Source: Parcubacteria group bacterium Licking1014_17
GTDB lineage: Bacteria > Patescibacteriota > Minisyncoccia > 2-02-FULL-40-12 > IGHO2-01-FULL-4-A
NCBI GenBank assembly: GCA_007376485.1
Contig: VMGJ01000005.1
Coordinates: forward strand, 1 to 50,524
Direction: 5' to 3'
Length of the DNA: 50,524 bases
In this document: positions 24,040 through 49,281 of the stretch, piece by piece
Numbering within the stretch: the stretch's first letter is position 1
Layout of the letters: every line of letters starts with the position of its first letter
The notes under the pieces: generated by a model
What the model saw: only the letters and a program-made list of their open reading frames with translations
Database searches by the model: none
Told to the model about the DNA's origin: nothing
Translations under genes and position numbers: made by a program

Positions 24040-24122
24040 GCCTGGGTGGCGGAATGGTATACGCGAAGGACTTAAAATCCTTTGCCCGCAAGGGCTTGTG
24101 GGTCCGAGTCCCACCCCAGGCA
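24040..24122 (+). tRNA. tRNA-Leu (UAA), class II
   Basis: Acceptor GCCTGGG/CCCAGGC, D arm GCG/CGC, anticodon arm AAGGA-CTTAAAA-TCCTT, a long variable arm, and T arm GTGGG-TCCGAGT-CCCAC (unusual C at position 55). Confidence 0.85.
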
Positions 24123-38523: not shown

Positions 38524-39027
38524 TCATTTTAAACGCTTTAACATTGACCTTTGGTCATCCAAATACGCTATCTTTGCGCCAGTTCTTTTCAATAAAATCG
38601 AACATTTCGGTGGTAATGCGGGCGATAAAATAGCCATCAGCGATTTTCTATCACTAAGAAATTTTACTAAGCCGGCATAATCCCCATCGCTGGCCACTAA
38701 AACGGCTTTATTAAATCTTTTTTCATAATAATCAACCGTCGCTTTTAAAACAAGATCGGCGTCACAGTTGCCCTTTACTTTTCCCGAACCATCATAAGTA
38801 ATTTCCTTATATACAAGTACATACCCCGACTCTTGAAGGTAAGTATAAAGATTTTTATTTTTCAGAACGAGACCTATGAAAAGATACGCGGTTTTAACGA
38901 AATATTTTTCCTCAAGCCAAATTCTAAATTTTTTAAAATCCAGCTCCCAACCTAAACTTTTAATGCCCTTGTGTAAATTGGCTCCATCAATATACGCGAA
39001 ATTATTTTCTGCAATTTTATTCTCCAT
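38524..39027 (-). CDS. NYN (LabA/DUF88-like, PIN-related) domain protein
   Basis: AYIDGANLHKG, GNCDADLV and VLVASDGDYAGLVKFL match the NYN acidic-residue pattern. The start overlaps the upstream RM gene stop by 11 nt. Confidence 0.7.
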   Translation of the reverse strand: MENKIAENNFAYIDGANLHKGIKSLGWELDFKKFRIWLEEKYFVKTAYLFIGLVLKNKNLYTYLQESGYVLVYKEITYDGSGKVKGNCDADLVLKATVDYYEKRFNKAVLVASDGDYAGLVKFLSDRKSLMAILSPALPPKCSILLKRTGAKIAYLDDQRSMLKRLK

Positions 39028-41854
39028 TTATTTGTCTATTTTCTATTATTTTTATCTCCTCTGGTGTGAGGTTGTAAAGTTTATAAACTTCTTCGTCAAT
39101 TCGGTGGTCGGTTTTGTCAATTTCGGATTTTAGGCTTTGCCATTTTTCAGAGTTTTCGGGCAATTTATGAAATTCTTTATTAAGGGATAGGATTTTATCT
39201 ACTAAGTTTTCAATATTATTTTGTTGATCTGCCGTAGCTCTATAAATCGGAAATTGCCGAAAAACCAAAACCCCTATGTCTACGCCTACGCCTCTTTTTT
39301 TACCATTAACATTGAACCAATTTCCCGCAAATTTTGAATTTAGAACTCCTAATAAATATTTCAAACTATAGTTTTTATCTTTCTGTACAATGACAGAAAA
39401 AGAAAAACCTACGTAATATTTATCTTCGTCGTAATAAAATCCCGGCGACAAAAACATGCCCTCACATATTAATTTTGGATTTTCAAAATATTTGCTTTCT
39501 CTCGGACGGTGTAGCCCGTACGGCTTATTCGATGAAGTTATAAACCTCTTCATTTTATCCAAATGATTTTTAATATTCGGATATAATCCATCAGTTATCT
39601 TTGATTTAGCTTCTTTATCTGCGTAAATAAGATACTCATTATTAAACAATATGAAGTATTTTCCGACATCACTGACGTCTAGATATTTTTTTACTAGTTT
39701 CTTTTCTTCGGCACTCAAATGTAAATCATTGACTTCTTTTTTAGATAAAACGAAAACGCCATCACCTGTTTTAAAATTATTGGTGGCATCTGCTTGTTTC
39801 TTGCTAATTTTGTCAGTGGCTTCTACAACTCCCTGAGAAACGTCATAAATATCACCAAGAGAGGTACAGTTTTTTAAATTAGCATCACTCGATACTTCAA
39901 AATTAATTTTATCGCCTACTATTATTTTTTGATAAGGAATCACCTTTTTATTCTTTTCATCTATAAAATCGGCAAAATTATCTTTCGAAATTTTGATTAA
40001 AATAGTCTTGTCGGCTTTATCCGCTTGGCGTTTTTGATAAATGTGGATTATATGCTTTCCGCTGACATCACCAAAAACCTTAATGTCGTCTAAATCAACG
40101 GCTTTTATTAAAATCAATTCATTTTTTATCCTCCTGATCAACTTTGAGGCGCCTGCGCTTTTTAGAAAATAACTATTGGTAATAAATCCAATGAGTCCGC
40201 TTTCTTTTACTACATCTATCGCACGATGTAGAAAAAAATACCAAAAATCCATTTTGCCCTGATAATATTCTCTATAACCGCTACTCTTTATTGGCTCAAA
40301 AACGTCTTTGTTATCCATTTCCTTTAAGTACGGCGGATTTCCTATAACTACATCAAACCCACCCTGCTCGAAAACTTCTCGAAATTCTTCCTGCCAGTTG
40401 AATGGTTTCTTGTCGCGGAAATTAGGACCAAAGTACTTCTTTAGTTCCTCGTCACTTCCTGAAATAAGTGAATTACCAACATGAATAGTGTGCTCCAACG
40501 CCGGTAGCTTCATTCGGCTATCTAGTGAATTAAGCAAGAGGTTCAATCTTGCAATTTCAACCGCTTGCGGGTCGAGGTCAACGCCGTAAATGTTTTGCTC
40601 TAAAATCTGAATTTTTGTAAATACATTGGCGGGTTTTTTATCAAACTCCTTATACTTCTCCGCGATAACATCAAGAGCTTTTATTAAAAAAGAACCAGAG
40701 CCACAAGCGGGGTCCAGCACTCTGATTTTTTTCAAATCGAATAAAGAATGGCATTTATCGAGAACCGGCTTCAAAGTTTGGGAAACAATATAGTCAACGA
40801 TATATTTGGGCGTGTAATAAATACCTTGCGATTTGCGCTTGGATTTACTCTTTTCCTCGGATTTCTTGCCCTGAACATAGCTTAAATACTGTTCGTAAAT
40901 ACCGCCGAGAACGTCGGCGGAAATCGCCGAGAAATCATAGCGATAGCCGTCTTCGGTGTTATATAAGCCCCCAAGGACAGCAATCATAGGGGTATCTTCA
41001 AGTTTCCACGTTTCGCAGTCGTGTTTTTCAAATAATTTTGAATCGTATTCTTTGTCAAAGTATCTAAACACCTCAATTAATAATTTATAAACATCAGCTG
41101 TTTCAGCACTCTTTTTATAACTGTGAAGTATACCTTCTAAATGTCTGGATTCCAGCCCTCTATCTTCGGCGGTTCGGATAAAGATAAGCCGGTCCAGTAT
41201 TTTTTGAACACCCTCGTCTATAATTTCCTGGTCAACTGTCCATCTGTTGTTTTTTCTGAAACTTTTTTCTATTATCACCCTCCATTTCATTAAGTCCTCA
41301 AAAAGTTTTTCGCCGACCTGTTTTCTCTTGGCCAACTTTCCCCATTCTTCGGCTTTCTCGTGCAATAATTTCTTCTCAAAACTTTCTTTTGATAACAACC
41401 ACAACTGGTCGAACTTTTCTAGATATTCCCCACACTTAATTTCAAAAAACTGATTTACAGCAACATTTCTTGGCGGAACTTCTGCGTTAAAAACCTTAAT
41501 GGATTCAAAATCTGTAAGTATTGCCCAAGTAACTCCCTTGTTCCAGCTGTAATTTATGGCTTGTTCCGCCCACTTCCATTCATCTAAATCAACTTTCATC
41601 GCCTTGGCCTCCAAAAACATCACGGGAATGTGATTTATCTGAAAAGCAAAATCTACCCGACCTTTCGACGAGCTTTCTTGCGGGATAACCTCGTCTAAAT
41701 TGCTCTGATTCCACCCCAAAGACTCAAAAAGCGGCATTATGAATCCACTTATGGTCTGGGCTTCATTGTACTTTTTATCTTGCCCGGAAGCGTGGGCTTG
41801 TTGATACTTTTCGAGAAGTCTTTTAATTCTATCTTTCGCCTCTTGTTGGGTCAT
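39017..41854 (-). CDS. Type IIG restriction-modification enzyme (fused PD-(D/E)xK nuclease, N6-adenine methyltransferase and specificity domain)
   Basis: N-terminal GRVDFAF...FLEAKAMK (D...ExK), methyltransferase motif I VLDPACGSGSFL, motif IV VVIGNPPY, and a TaqI-like C-terminal target-recognition region. Confidence 0.8.
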   Translation of the reverse strand: MTQQEAKDRIKRLLEKYQQAHASGQDKKYNEAQTISGFIMPLFESLGWNQSNLDEVIPQESSSKGRVDFAFQINHIPVMFLEAKAMKVDLDEWKWAEQAINYSWNKGVTWAILTDFESIKVFNAEVPPRNVAVNQFFEIKCGEYLEKFDQLWLLSKESFEKKLLHEKAEEWGKLAKRKQVGEKLFEDLMKWRVIIEKSFRKNNRWTVDQEIIDEGVQKILDRLIFIRTAEDRGLESRHLEGILHSYKKSAETADVYKLLIEVFRYFDKEYDSKLFEKHDCETWKLEDTPMIAVLGGLYNTEDGYRYDFSAISADVLGGIYEQYLSYVQGKKSEEKSKSKRKSQGIYYTPKYIVDYIVSQTLKPVLDKCHSLFDLKKIRVLDPACGSGSFLIKALDVIAEKYKEFDKKPANVFTKIQILEQNIYGVDLDPQAVEIARLNLLLNSLDSRMKLPALEHTIHVGNSLISGSDEELKKYFGPNFRDKKPFNWQEEFREVFEQGGFDVVIGNPPYLKEMDNKDVFEPIKSSGYREYYQGKMDFWYFFLHRAIDVVKESGLIGFITNSYFLKSAGASKLIRRIKNELILIKAVDLDDIKVFGDVSGKHIIHIYQKRQADKADKTILIKISKDNFADFIDEKNKKVIPYQKIIVGDKINFEVSSDANLKNCTSLGDIYDVSQGVVEATDKISKKQADATNNFKTGDGVFVLSKKEVNDLHLSAEEKKLVKKYLDVSDVGKYFILFNNEYLIYADKEAKSKITDGLYPNIKNHLDKMKRFITSSNKPYGLHRPRESKYFENPKLICEGMFLSPGFYYDEDKYYVGFSFSVIVQKDKNYSLKYLLGVLNSKFAGNWFNVNGKKRGVGVDIGVLVFRQFPIYRATADQQNNIENLVDKILSLNKEFHKLPENSEKWQSLKSEIDKTDHRIDEEVYKLYNLTPEEIKIIENRQINGE

Positions 41855-45903: not shown

Positions 45904-46506
45904 CTATGAATTTTCTTTTTCCCAACCGTTGCCTAAACGGGGCAAATCGCCAAACGGCCAGTCGGCAAGGGATACTTCTAAATCAGTTTGGACAGGAATA
46001 TTGTCATAAGCCGCCATCGCTAGAGCGCAACAGCGATGCATACCCTCAGCTACAAAAATATCGCCGTTTTTATCGCGGATAGCCATGATTGAAGTTTCCT
46101 TAGGAAAATTATGAGCGAGTTCGCGGATGAGCCAATTATTATGCACTCCTGGATGTGCCAGAAGGTCGCGCAGACAGGGTGGCTGTTCCGGAAATACCGG
46201 ATAAAACCATTTTGCCCAACCATGAAACATCCCGCCACGCCAATTGGGCACTTCTTCCAAAGGATTAAGCACTCCATATAACGCCCATTTAAGTTCGGGT
46301 CCGCGCAAATTAACATGGGTTTTCTCCCGCCACTCCCGCCATGATTTAAATCTCCTTGCCGCCCAAAAATCCTTCCAATGCTCTACGTTCTCCTCGTCCG
46401 TCCGCCAAATCTCAAAAACCTCTTTCCAGAGTAGGTCTTTAATTTTTTGAAGATTGTTCGAATTGTCCATGGGGTTTTTGAGGATTAAATAGAACATTTT
46501 CAGCAT
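45904..46506 (-). CDS. Trp-rich hypothetical protein with a ParB/Srx-like C-terminal motif
   Basis: IMAIRDKNGDIFVAEGMHRCCALAMA resembles the ParB N-terminal domain pattern (..v.dG.HR..A). The start could instead be the ATG at 46470. Confidence 0.35.
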   Translation of the reverse strand: MLKMFYLILKNPMDNSNNLQKIKDLLWKEVFEIWRTDEENVEHWKDFWAARRFKSWREWREKTHVNLRGPELKWALYGVLNPLEEVPNWRGGMFHGWAKWFYPVFPEQPPCLRDLLAHPGVHNNWLIRELAHNFPKETSIMAIRDKNGDIFVAEGMHRCCALAMAAYDNIPVQTDLEVSLADWPFGDLPRLGNGWEKENS

Positions 46507-46525: not shown

Positions 46526-47095
46526 TTACCGCATTTTCAATTCCGGAAATTCTGGATCTGGCCAACCCCAGGTGGTTTCGTCCCATCGAAATTGGCCCCG
46601 ATTAAATACGTAGGATTTAGTAAAAGTAATTTGACCAGGGGCTTTATCAATTGCTGGAACTATACTGAGGTCTAGTTTAAGTGTTGCCTCAGCTAGAGCT
46701 GGCGGGTCATCTTCTAAAAAATTAAAGGATGAAGCGGTTCTTTTGTAGTGAGGTAAATTGTTAGGGGCTATTCGATAAGTATCCTGGTAGATTTTCTCTC
46801 CCTGGTTTTTTCTATTTACAGTGGCCCGCCACGAAACGAGAGCTGGTATATTTGAGGCGTTTGAAAACCAAAAATAAGTATTATTATTATTTTTATCAAA
46901 AATCATATTAACATCCACGGCTGGCAACATTTGGTTTTCCACCATTCTTTCTGTAGCGCGAGTATATTTCTTCAGCCAATTTAAAGTTACAGCCAGAACA
47001 ATAACACTGGCTACTGTGGCTCCAAACTGAAACCAACCAGCCCAATTAATAGAGGGGTTCTGAGTAAGAAAATGATGATAGGGGTATACTGGCAT
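46526..47095 (-). CDS. Single-pass membrane protein, unknown function
   Basis: One TM (WFQFGATVASVIVLAVTL). The start lies 2 nt after the HNH gene stop. Confidence 0.45.
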   Translation of the reverse strand: MPVYPYHHFLTQNPSINWAGWFQFGATVASVIVLAVTLNWLKKYTRATERMVENQMLPAVDVNMIFDKNNNNTYFWFSNASNIPALVSWRATVNRKNQGEKIYQDTYRIAPNNLPHYKRTASSFNFLEDDPPALAEATLKLDLSIVPAIDKAPGQITFTKSYVFNRGQFRWDETTWGWPDPEFPELKMR

Positions 47096-47097
47096 GG

Positions 47098-47847
47098 TTA
47101 AATTTTAATATCTTCTTTATTGCTCTTGCCGAGATTACACTCTTGGCATAAGGTCTGTAAGTTATCAAGTGTGGTTTTTCCGCCTTTTGAAAAAGGCACT
47201 ATGTGATCTATGTGTAGTTTGATACCTAAATCTGTCGCGGGGCTTCTGCCGCAGAAAACACAACGGAAACTATCCCTATCTAAAACACGAATTCGCATAC
47301 TCATCGGGATATTTCTCGAATAACTGATTTTTATATGTTGTGTTTTTCCTTCAGTAATAATGCGTGTATCAGTCTCCGCTGTTTTTTCAGCCATTGGTTC
47401 AACAACTATGCTCCCGCCCATTTTATGCTCAATAAATTTAAGACAAGCATTCGACCAGCCACTAAATTTATAACGATATGTTCCGAGGCTAAAAGCTGGG
47501 TTTGAGTTTTTCCATTCTGTGCAAGATGGGCGATGGCCTAATTTTTTCCATATCCTATCCATTTCTTCAAAAAGCTGTTCTTCTGTTCGATCCAATAAAT
47601 TACTTCTCGATTTTCGAGGTAATAAATCTGTGCCGTTTTCACAGAGTTTGTCTTTGAGGGCAGTTAGAGCTTTATACCAAGAACCAAACTCATTTTTTAC
47701 TGTTCCAGAACTGATTTTGGAGACCTTGTTGAATTCGTCAGAACTAAATTCCCGATATCCGAAATTTACTGCCACTTTTTCAAGTTCGGCAAGAATTTTT
47801 TCTCGAGAGATTTTATCCGATCTTTGTCTCTGAAATTGATAGTCCAT
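47098..47847 (-). CDS. HNH endonuclease with two N-terminal homing-endonuclease-associated repeats
   Basis: Two ~50-aa repeats (…FNKVSKISSGTVKNEFGSWYKAL… and …WKNSNPAFSLGTYRYKFSGWSNAC…) and a C-terminal HNH domain: CVFCG...HIDHIVPFSKGGKTTLDNLQTLCQECNLGK. Confidence 0.8.
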   Translation of the reverse strand: MDYQFQRQRSDKISREKILAELEKVAVNFGYREFSSDEFNKVSKISSGTVKNEFGSWYKALTALKDKLCENGTDLLPRKSRSNLLDRTEEQLFEEMDRIWKKLGHRPSCTEWKNSNPAFSLGTYRYKFSGWSNACLKFIEHKMGGSIVVEPMAEKTAETDTRIITEGKTQHIKISYSRNIPMSMRIRVLDRDSFRCVFCGRSPATDLGIKLHIDHIVPFSKGGKTTLDNLQTLCQECNLGKSNKEDIKI

Positions 47848-48220: not shown

Positions 48221-48510
48221 CGCGGGTGACGGGATTCGAACCCGTGATCTCCGCCGTGCACGCAATCCACTATTTTCATAATGGCGTGGACTATATCTTC
48301 GCCGTATCCGCTAATCGGCGGATTTAGGTGCCTCGGTATCTAGTCTCTACGGCGCCCCGCCTAAGTTTTGCTCTGCAAAATTTAGGCAGGTTCCCACGGT
48401 ATTGCCCTCTATGGGTTTCACCGTTATCCCGAAGTGTTCACCCAGCGGTTTCCCACTGGGGCTGCAATTTCTTACAGGGCGGCGCTTTAAACCAGCTAAG
48501 CTACACCCGC
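48221..48510 (-). tRNA. tRNA-Asp (GUC) interrupted by a group I intron
   Basis: The 5' exon is 48510..48474: GCGGGTG-TA-GCTT-AGCTGGTTTA-AAGC-G-CCGCC-CTGT. The 3' exon is 48258..48221: CAC-GGCGG-AGATC-ACGGG-TTCGAAT-CCCGT-CACCCGC-G. Joined, they give a 75-nt cloverleaf with the loop CUGUCAC. Confidence 0.85.
48259..48473 (-). ncRNA. Group I intron (215 nt, no ORF) in the tRNA-Asp anticodon loop
   Basis: The 5' exon ends in U, which can wobble-pair with the G of intron GCAG (P1: CUGU/GCAG). The intron ends in G. The core-like strings GTAGAGACTAGATACC and GAAGATATAGTCC match my recollection of the Azoarcus and Tetrahymena cores. Confidence 0.8.
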
Positions 48511-49185
48511 ACTATTCATAATTTTCAAAGCACTCACGAATTTATTATACTTCCTTTTTAAATATGTTTCAGCCGTTGTATTATTATACATTAAATTAAA
48601 CAAGGCAAGGGAGTCTTTTAATGAAAATACCAAGTCAAATCCTCTATTTTTTTGGTTTATGTATCCTCCCTTGACGCAATTCTTTAAAGATTTTTTTAGT
48701 CCTTCAAGAAATTCCCTGCTGCCTGAGGTAAAAAGTGAAGTCACCCGCCATCTAAATTTCTGCCTATCCTTATTCCAGTATTTTCCGAAACTGATACAGC
48801 CATCCCCATCAAAATAACCCCTAACGAAATGACTCATGTATTTAGCCGGCACACTCGGAAACTTTACGGACAGGCTTTTATTCTGTTTTATTCCGAAATT
48901 GGATAATTTTGCTATTATTTCTTTTCCGCCTATCTGTAAACGGTATCGGTTTTTCCAGTTTGAATTTAATCTATTTTTCTCATATTTAGATATTTTATGT
49001 TCGGATTTTAATAATTTTCTAATATTTTCTATTATTTCTTTATCTGTTGATGTAAACTCTAAAAACCAGCTTCCCCTTGGATTTTTATAGACTGCGCCAT
49101 CGGCGAAGATATAACCCAAAACATATGCCATTTCCGGCGACCATTTATCAAAAAATTTCTTATTGTAATTTTTAAATATTGGCAT
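48496..49185 (-). CDS. Double-motif LAGLIDADG homing-endonuclease-family protein
   Basis: MAYVLGYIFADGAV and FVRGYFDGDGCIS. The last four codons plus the stop (gcg ggt gta gct tag) are the first 15 nt of tRNA-Asp. Confidence 0.8.
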   Translation of the reverse strand: MPIFKNYNKKFFDKWSPEMAYVLGYIFADGAVYKNPRGSWFLEFTSTDKEIIENIRKLLKSEHKISKYEKNRLNSNWKNRYRLQIGGKEIIAKLSNFGIKQNKSLSVKFPSVPAKYMSHFVRGYFDGDGCISFGKYWNKDRQKFRWRVTSLFTSGSREFLEGLKKSLKNCVKGGYINQKNRGFDLVFSLKDSLALFNLMYNNTTAETYLKRKYNKFVSALKIMNSAGVA

Positions 49186-49207
49186 TAAGATTTTAGGGAT
49201 TAAATTG

Positions 49208-49281
49208 TGACAGGGGCGGGAGTCGAACCCGCGACCTACGGCTTATGAGTCCGTCGCTCTAACCAGCTGAGCTACCCTGTC
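49208..49281 (-). tRNA. tRNA with CAU anticodon (elongator Met or Ile2)
   Basis: Minus strand reads GACAGGG-TA-GCTC-AGCTGGTTA-GAGC-G-ACGGA-CTCATAA-GCCGT-AGGTC-GCGGG-TTCGACT-CCCGC-CCCTGTC-A. It lacks the initiator 3xG-C anticodon stem. Confidence 0.85.

Follow-up and report, generated by a model that had tools for sequence, protein, structure and literature searches.

The DNA analyzed here, a stretch of 50,524 nucleotides that we refer to in its entirety as the window, has a G+C content of 43.6% and encodes a GyrB that is at most 68% identical to Patescibacteria proteins, the group from which all of its top matches come. Near its end, on the minus strand, lies a tRNA-Asp(GUC) gene in an exon-intron-exon arrangement (48221..48510). 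Upstream of it are a free-standing gene for a double-motif LAGLIDADG endonuclease of 229 amino acids (49185..48496, minus strand) and an intron-less tRNA-Met(CAU) gene (49207..49281, minus strand), with the endonuclease ORF occupying the interval between the two tRNA genes. On the other side, 373 nt downstream of tRNA-Asp, starts a gene for an HNH endonuclease with homing-associated repeats (47098..47847, minus strand; Pfam HNH_repeat 6.4e-17, HNH 2.9e-13), a homologue of which is absent from the 119 related loci among the matches listed; two ORFs without a Pfam match come after it (46526..47095 and 45904..46506). The window also holds, adjoining pheS/pheT and gyrB, a gene for a 945-aa Eco57I/MmeI-like restriction-modification fusion (39017..41854, minus strand; Pfam Eco57I 4.3e-38, N6_Mtase, TaqI_C).

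The two exons of the tRNA-Asp gene, 37 nt and 38 nt in length, join to give a 75-nt tRNA. The 5′ exon (GCGGGTGTAGCTTAGCTGGTTTAAAGCGCCGCCCTGT) runs from 48510 to 48474 and comprises tRNA positions 1-35, its last base being U35 (48474), while the 3′ exon (CACGGCGGAGATCACGGGTTCGAATCCCGTCACCCGCG, 48258..48221) supplies positions 36-73, from C36 to the discriminator G73; the expected spliced junction is CCGCCCUGU|CACGGCGG. With introns allowed, ARAGORN reports the gene as c[48220,48510] (gtc) i(38,215), and it folds the joined exons into a canonical tRNA-Asp(gtc) cloverleaf with the loop CUGUCAC, G10, and G73. A sequence-only reading of the window had put forward exactly this 75-nt tRNA, with the same loop and a discriminator G, split by 215 nt, and had proposed an intron-aware tRNA call as a check; the ARAGORN result bears it out on each count. 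Only one choice of splice sites restores a tRNA, and the alternatives give none. In E. coli, the identity elements of tRNA-Asp are G73, G34, U35, C36, C38, and G10, and the joined exons present these elements within the cloverleaf, along with the GUC anticodon. When ARAGORN is run without intron detection it misses the gene and calls four other tRNAs in the window. The tRNA-Leu(UAA) gene of the window (24040..24122) is indeed intron-less, as had also been pointed out, though this is uninformative. A promoter-like element, CTGAAA-17-TATAAT (48544..48572, minus strand), identified by consensus match only, falls 34 nt before the tRNA-Asp +1, where the endonuclease ORF is coming to its 3′ end.

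The intron (48473..48259, minus strand) is 215 nt long, starts with AAGAAATTGCAG, and ends with TTGCGTG; it contains no ORF, and an endonuclease gene would not fit into this length. P1 is formed at the 5′ splice site by the sequence CUGU|AA GAAA UUGCAG (48462..48477), in which U35 makes a U·G wobble with the internal guide UUGCAG. RNAfold predicts a P2 hairpin (CCCAGUGG GAAA CCGCUGGG, 48441..48460), the pairing of which is kept in homologues despite differing sequences. The 5′ strand of P3, P4, a short P5, P6, and a P6a extension follow (48351..48434; RNAfold and covariation). The P3 strand CUUCGG (48434..48429) pairs with CCGAGG (48331..48336; RNAfold and covariation), P4 consists of ACGGU/ACCGU (48424..48420 / 48400..48396; RNAfold and alignment), and P5 is minimal relative to homologues. 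By alignment to the RF00028 core, GUAGAGACUAGA (48339..48350) corresponds to J6/7 and the 5′ strand of P7 (GACUA, 48345..48341), and AAGAUAUAGUCC (48288..48299) to J8/7 and the 3′ strand of P7 (UAGUC, 48293..48289). The stretch between them (48300..48330) is assigned to P8 (CACC/GGCG, which includes a single A·C mismatch) and P8a (AUCCGC/GCGGAU), and the one beyond them (48260..48287) to P9.0, ACG/CGU, and P9, CCAUUAU GAAA AUAGUGG. The intron ends in the terminal G, or omega G (48259), an invariant column in the 60-sequence alignment described below. The features on which the sequence-only reading had based its assignment to group I are all in place, namely the exon-end U opposite a G in P1 (CUGUAA/UUGCAG closed by GAAA), the terminal G, and the two core strands GTAGAGACTAGA (48350..48339) and AAGATATAGTCC (48299..48288).

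That reading had also named a search with the Rfam group I model and a folding of P1-P9 as checks. The first stands in part: a 551-nt local scan matches the intron to RF00028 end to end (model positions 1-253, E 4.1e-9), and the score of 41.1 bits falls below the gathering score of 50 bits. A default Rfam run at gathering thresholds does not find the intron, nor does an E-value scan of the whole window. Among 18 tRNA-Asp introns of relatives, only 2 reach the gathering score and 16 fall below it; therefore, the low score reflects the model rather than decay. None of the 12 seeds of RF00028 is bacterial (Williams 2020, bioRxiv, doi 10.1101/2020.01.27.920355). As for the folding, the 290-nt precursor has a predicted energy of -117.4 kcal/mol versus -91.5 ± 5.2 for shuffled sequences (z -4.97), and RNAfold recovers P1, P2, P3, P4, P5, P6/P6a, the inner part of P8, and P9, as well as the acceptor, anticodon, and T stems of the tRNA.

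Covariation was assessed in an alignment of the window sequence with 59 loci that ARAGORN calls as tRNA-Asp (n = 60, 63% mean column identity). In the combined P1-P9 and tRNA structure, 91.0% of cells are paired, compared with 81.5% in shuffles and 37-48% when the partners are slid, and changes on both sides are seen in 42 of the 70 pairs; none of 500 shuffles attains any of the covariation measures. P3 is 99.7% paired, with both-side changes in 5/6 pairs. One pair of P4 (columns 96/153) swaps between UA and AU in a ratio of 32:28, and the other four are constant. P8 is 98.8% paired, and P9 is 85.8% paired with both-side changes in 4/6 pairs. The splice-site U·G (columns 40/53) is kept in 60/60 homologues, GUAGAGACUAGA is likewise invariant in 60/60, and P7, J8/7 (AAGAUAUAGUCC), and the terminal G are invariant in the homologues aligned. 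The exons tell the same story: they are intact in all 60 homologues aligned, drawn from the matches listed, in which pairing in the acceptor, D, and anticodon stems amounts to 99.7-100%, and the 5-bp anticodon stem, at 99.7%, covaries in four of its five pairs. The covariation, the invariant core, and the covarying exon stems argue strongly that the RNA fold is conserved and functional and that the tRNA is intact. The sequence thus displays the P1 U·G, the omega G, the P3-P9 core with its P3/P7 pseudoknot, J6/7, J8/7, and the guanosine site in P7, and together with the RF00028 match and the RNAfold result the covariation confirms that 48473..48259 is a group I intron located between U35 and C36 of tRNA-Asp(GUC).

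To place the intron among its relatives, one genome per species (species representatives) was scanned with a pattern made of the two core strands. At least 119 loci match, almost all in metagenome-assembled genomes of Patescibacteria (CPR), and among the matches listed 99 fall inside an intron-containing tRNA. ARAGORN assigns at least 59 loci to tRNA-Asp(gtc), interrupted where the window gene is by an intron of ~200-250 nt, and 4 further listed loci (L016, L044, L056, L108) are tRNA-Asp genes in which it misplaces the splice site. The same intron is present at the same site in at least ~60 species-representative Patescibacteria genomes. The sequence-only reading had implied that tRNA-Asp is a novel host, which these genes and the seed alignment of Williams 2020 (doi 10.1101/2020.01.27.920355) contradict, as the latter includes Wba81.Asp.4Ug, an intron of tRNA-Asp. 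The window intron shares the defining features of this catalogued Asp.4Ug class, with its tRNA-Asp host, its insertion after the fourth base of the anticodon loop, a U at -1, and a 3′ G, so tRNA-Asp is already known as an intron host. The preprint is a catalogue without splicing assays, and in the literature we did not find a splicing assay for any tRNA-Asp intron; the window intron is a further instance of a widespread class that has been characterized so far by computation alone.

The scan also returned loci that lie outside this class. Introns with the same core interrupt tRNA-Asn(GUU) at CUGU|UAA in at least nine loci (L026, L028, L036, L054, L072, L080, L081, L092, L103), and at least ~19 tRNA-Thr(UGU) loci contain introns, some of them 500-560 nt long, which may hold ORFs. 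Further group I introns are found in tRNA-Met/fMet(CAU) genes near the tRNA-Asp of relatives, at L071:2081-2382 (-) and L020:4738-5059 (+), with RF00028 scores of 69.3 and 62.4 bits, respectively. The ARAGORN -i splice site is off by a few bases in L016/L205, L213, L108, L044, L056, L080, L081, and L103. Apparent introns in tRNA-His, tRNA-Tyr, or tRNA-Ala of relatives were rejected, since their junctions are those of tRNA-Asp or tRNA-Asn with the splice site misplaced by ARAGORN. Mohanta 2017 describes "group I introns" in cyanobacterial tRNAs, but at 22-49 nt these are too short for group I and were set aside as irrelevant.

Considering these data, we think it very probable that this is the tRNA-Asp(GUC) gene of an uncultured Patescibacteria (CPR) bacterium, split at U35/C36 by a group I intron of 215 nt that lacks an ORF and would be spliced out. 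Sequence, fold, conservation, covariation, and occurrence across a widespread lineage are all directly observed; catalysis and splicing in vivo are what we infer from them by analogy with characterized group I introns. In the pathway that we propose, the pre-tRNA-Asp would be transcribed and its intron would fold into P1-P9. The guide UUGCAG would pair with the exon end CUGU and the first two intron bases, placing U35 in the U·G wobble, and an external guanosine bound at P7 would attack after U35. The terminal intron G would then replace the guanosine in the P7 site, and the freed 3′ OH of U35 would attack after the terminal G, joining the exons with the loop CUGUCAC and restoring the GUC anticodon. 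The 5-bp anticodon stem formed by the exons probably helps the splice sites to meet, as in the Anabaena tRNA-Leu intron, for which exon pairing is needed for splicing (Zaug et al. 1993, as cited in PMC3984707).

In the 229-aa ORF next to the tRNA, Pfam finds two domains (LAGLIDADG_3 1.1e-15, LAGLIDADG_1 6.9e-6), and the AlphaFold2 model of the protein (pLDDT 94.5) has its best fold match in I-Tsp061I (E 3.6e-10, Foldseek vs PDB), while a sequence search of the PDB gives marginal matches only (E 0.02-0.04). The protein has two motifs, the catalytic acidic residues Asp29 and Asp128, both invariant in 45 LAGLIDADG homologues, and the predicted alpha-beta-beta-alpha-beta-beta-alpha double-domain fold that are expected of a LAGLIDADG endonuclease. 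Its TAG stop codon (48498..48496) lies inside the 5′ exon of tRNA-Asp, in the D arm, and in at least ~27 loci the stop is the tRNA's own U8-A9-G10. The family comprises at least 1,729 protein clusters at E ≤ 1e-10. In a search starting from the protein, the ORF is directly 5′ of tRNA-Asp in at least 74 of 79 related loci, which belong to Patescibacteria, plus Omnitrophota with tRNA-Val upstream; relatives repeat the gene order tRNA-Met, endonuclease gene, tRNA-Asp. In the literature on LAGLIDADG proteins with tRNA-Asp or CPR, we did not find this linkage between endonuclease and tRNA-Asp described.

Among the 77 ORF loci that can be scored for intron state, the adjacent tRNA-Asp lacks the intron in 55. 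Conversely, among 55 intron-bearing tRNA-Asp loci with enough upstream sequence (listed matches), 38 have a full ORF, 5 a decayed one, and 12 none, and at least 9 of these 12 retain the last ~100 nt of the ORF. The decayed copies adjoin intact intron-bearing tRNA-Asp genes and either have an in-frame stop (L043, L101) or are fragments (L010, L024, L039). The retained ORF end, in the spacer between tRNA-Met and tRNA-Asp of L011, L012, L021, L049, L050, L057, L058, L077, and L118, reads TTGAAA-N15-TATAAT, ~68-80 nt upstream of tRNA-Asp, and to judge from its sequence this 3′ end of the ORF may serve as the tRNA-Asp promoter. Duplicates of 10-17 nt of the tRNA-Asp 5′ end occur ~80-95 nt upstream in L216 (~2180-2270) and L343 (~95 nt), and may be scars left when the endonuclease gene was acquired or lost. 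The patchy presence, the fragments, and the in-frame stops seen in these sequences would agree with the gain-decay-loss cycle of a selfish element.

These observations leave room for the idea that ORF and intron form a composite mobile unit, in which the LAGLIDADG enzyme would cut tRNA-Asp genes that lack it and repair would copy the intron, 37 nt away, along with the ORF. We regard this as possible but unlikely, and hold the same view of its corollary, that the ORF-less intron spreads by hitch-hiking, in the manner of the trans or collaborative homing known from phages; in this scenario the intron might also shield its host tRNA-Asp gene from cleavage by the endonuclease. The arrangement itself speaks for the composite unit, as the ORF adjoins the tRNA and overlaps its 5′ exon, and a full or decayed ORF is present at 43/55 intron-bearing tRNA-Asp loci (listed matches), with an ORF remnant at most of the "empty" ones. 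The invariant catalytic Asp residues and the predicted fold are those of an endonuclease, and the concept is established in phages (PMC3984707). In addition, a general sample of tRNA-Asp genes had the ORF in 0/102 and the intron in 0/116, although this sample was drawn with a generic 5′-half pattern and consists mainly of non-CPR bacteria, leaving the association within Patescibacteria undecided. Against it, the intron-less state of 55/77 ORF-adjacent tRNA-Asp genes shows that the endonuclease can be maintained where the intron is absent. On the endonuclease tree, intron state is distributed near randomly, with at least 15 changes compared with 19 in shuffles, on a neighbor-joining tree whose resolution is too poor to separate transfer from loss. 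The ORF is absent from the 32 listed loci at which introns with the same core interrupt six other tRNAs (tRNA-Asn, Thr, Leu, Met, Phe, and Ser). Finally, the co-occurrence of ORF and intron is confounded by phylogeny, because Patescibacteria contain most of the known cases of each element. In the loci sampled, no mature tRNA-Asp sequence was found in identical form both with and without the intron; the closest approach is L340, whose intron-less tRNA-Asp almost matches the joined exons of the intron-bearing L118.

Somewhat more doubtful still, in our judgment, is the broader proposal that the tRNA-Asp of Patescibacteria and some Omnitrophota is a landing site shared by two interacting selfish elements, an endonuclease parked at the 5′ side and a co-converted Asp.4Ug intron. 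The frequent ending of the ORF at the tRNA's U8-A9-G10 and the surviving TTGAAA-N15-TATAAT, which may be the tRNA promoter, would belong to the same tentative picture. If true, this would amount to collaborative homing in a cellular tRNA gene.

A role for the LAGLIDADG protein as a maturase, needed for folding and splicing of the intron as with I-AniI or the bI3 maturase, is very improbable. The ORF adjoins tRNA-Asp, co-transcription is probable, and the fold search also recovers I-AniI (1p8k) and the bI3 maturase (2ab5); against this, most copies of the ORF (the 55/77 noted above) adjoin an intron-less tRNA-Asp, introns are intact at the 12 listed loci without the ORF and at the 5 with broken copies, the catalytic residues are conserved as for a nuclease, and the intron core is complete. 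Because the endonuclease gene is found 5′ of tRNA-Asp whether an intron is present or not, its linkage is to tRNA-Asp and not to the intron, which disfavors a maturase. The adjacent LAGLIDADG gene is a separate, tRNA-Asp-tied element that the intron does not require. We give the least credence to a dead gene, a tRNA-Asp broken by a relic that no longer splices and backed by a functional copy elsewhere in the genome, since the sub-threshold RF00028 score, the A·C mismatch in P8, the minimal P5, and a view limited to 50 kb of the genome are outweighed by core elements that are all intact and match the invariant columns of 59 relatives, by perfect and covarying exons, by the 16/18 relatives that likewise score below the Rfam threshold, and by the reported finding that the tRNA sets of CPR genomes are complete only when genes of this kind are counted (PMC8172020).

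The intron has consequences for annotation. Complete CPR genomes show tRNAs for all amino acids only once group I introns are allowed, and CPR tRNAs with these introns are hard to detect (Lui et al. 2021, PMC8172020); tRNAscan-SE 2.0 is, according to its own paper, not designed to detect group I introns. At this locus, both the intron and the tRNA-Asp gene escape the standard tools, namely ARAGORN without introns and Rfam when its gathering threshold is applied. Because they miss such genes, genomes appear to be without tRNA-Asp, and with only 2/18 related introns at the Rfam threshold the class is systematically under-annotated. Given a CPR genome of ~1 Mb, of which 50 kb was viewed, 48221..48510 is likely the sole tRNA-Asp gene. 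If so, the whole of aspartate decoding would hinge on a ribozyme, and the compact, conserved intron would be a good candidate for testing splicing for the first time in the Asp class. The intron itself is one more case of a catalogued class and brings little scientific surprise; further study could be more rewarding for the large LAGLIDADG family anchored 5′ of tRNA-Asp.

Among known systems, free-standing homing endonucleases beside ORF-less introns, with collaborative or trans homing, have been described for two phage pairs: T4 mobE and the I-TevIII intron, and F-CphI and the psbA intron, which is carried by cyanophage S-PM2 (PMC3984707, PMC6083498, PMC2790892). The window differs from both in having a cellular tRNA gene as the host and a LAGLIDADG enzyme as the endonuclease, and in that the endonuclease family is mostly found without the intron. 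The window protein is predicted to fold like the monomeric double-motif enzymes I-Tsp061I (2dch), I-OnuI, I-AniI, and I-SceI (TM-score ~0.6; Foldseek E from 3.6e-10 to 1e-7) and has, as they do, two motifs that contain a conserved catalytic Asp, though at a sequence identity of only 12-21%. Unlike these enzymes, it is encoded outside an intron or intein, by a gene whose stop lies in a tRNA gene.

As for the intron, it has in common with Wba81.Asp.4Ug the tRNA, the insertion at CUGU/CAC, the U at -1, the terminal G, and the core strands GUAGAGACUA and GAUAGUCC. The P1-P2 and J3/4-P4 regions of that seed differ (CUAAUUCGGGGAAA against GAUAACGGUGAAA), and in this region the window intron is nearer to the seeds Mba143.Tyr.4Ug and Pgr210.Thr.2Ug. 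The tRNA-Asn(GUU) introns (at least nine loci) share the core, the guide GCAG, and an insertion after U35 (CUGU|UAA), but reside in another tRNA and never have the LAGLIDADG gene alongside (9 listed loci). The introns of Azoarcus tRNA-Ile(CAU) and of Anabaena and other cyanobacterial tRNA-Leu(UAA) belong to subgroup IC3 and are experimentally self-splicing. Compared on the basis of general knowledge and of the Aol6.Ile2.5Ug and Leu.3Ug seed rows, these and the window intron all have a length of ~200-250 nt, no ORF, a site in the anticodon loop, a P1 with a short loop, P2, P9.0/P9, the GUAGAGACUAGA core, and exons that form the anticodon stem. The tRNA is a different one, the insertion is after 36 or 34 in theirs and after 35 in the window, and J8/7 reads AAGAUAUAGUCC in the window where theirs reads AAGGCAUAGUCC. 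With its compact P2, P5, P6a, P8, and P9.0/P9 and a core like that of Azoarcus, the window intron resembles, by analogy of layout, the compact IC3-type introns of bacterial tRNAs.
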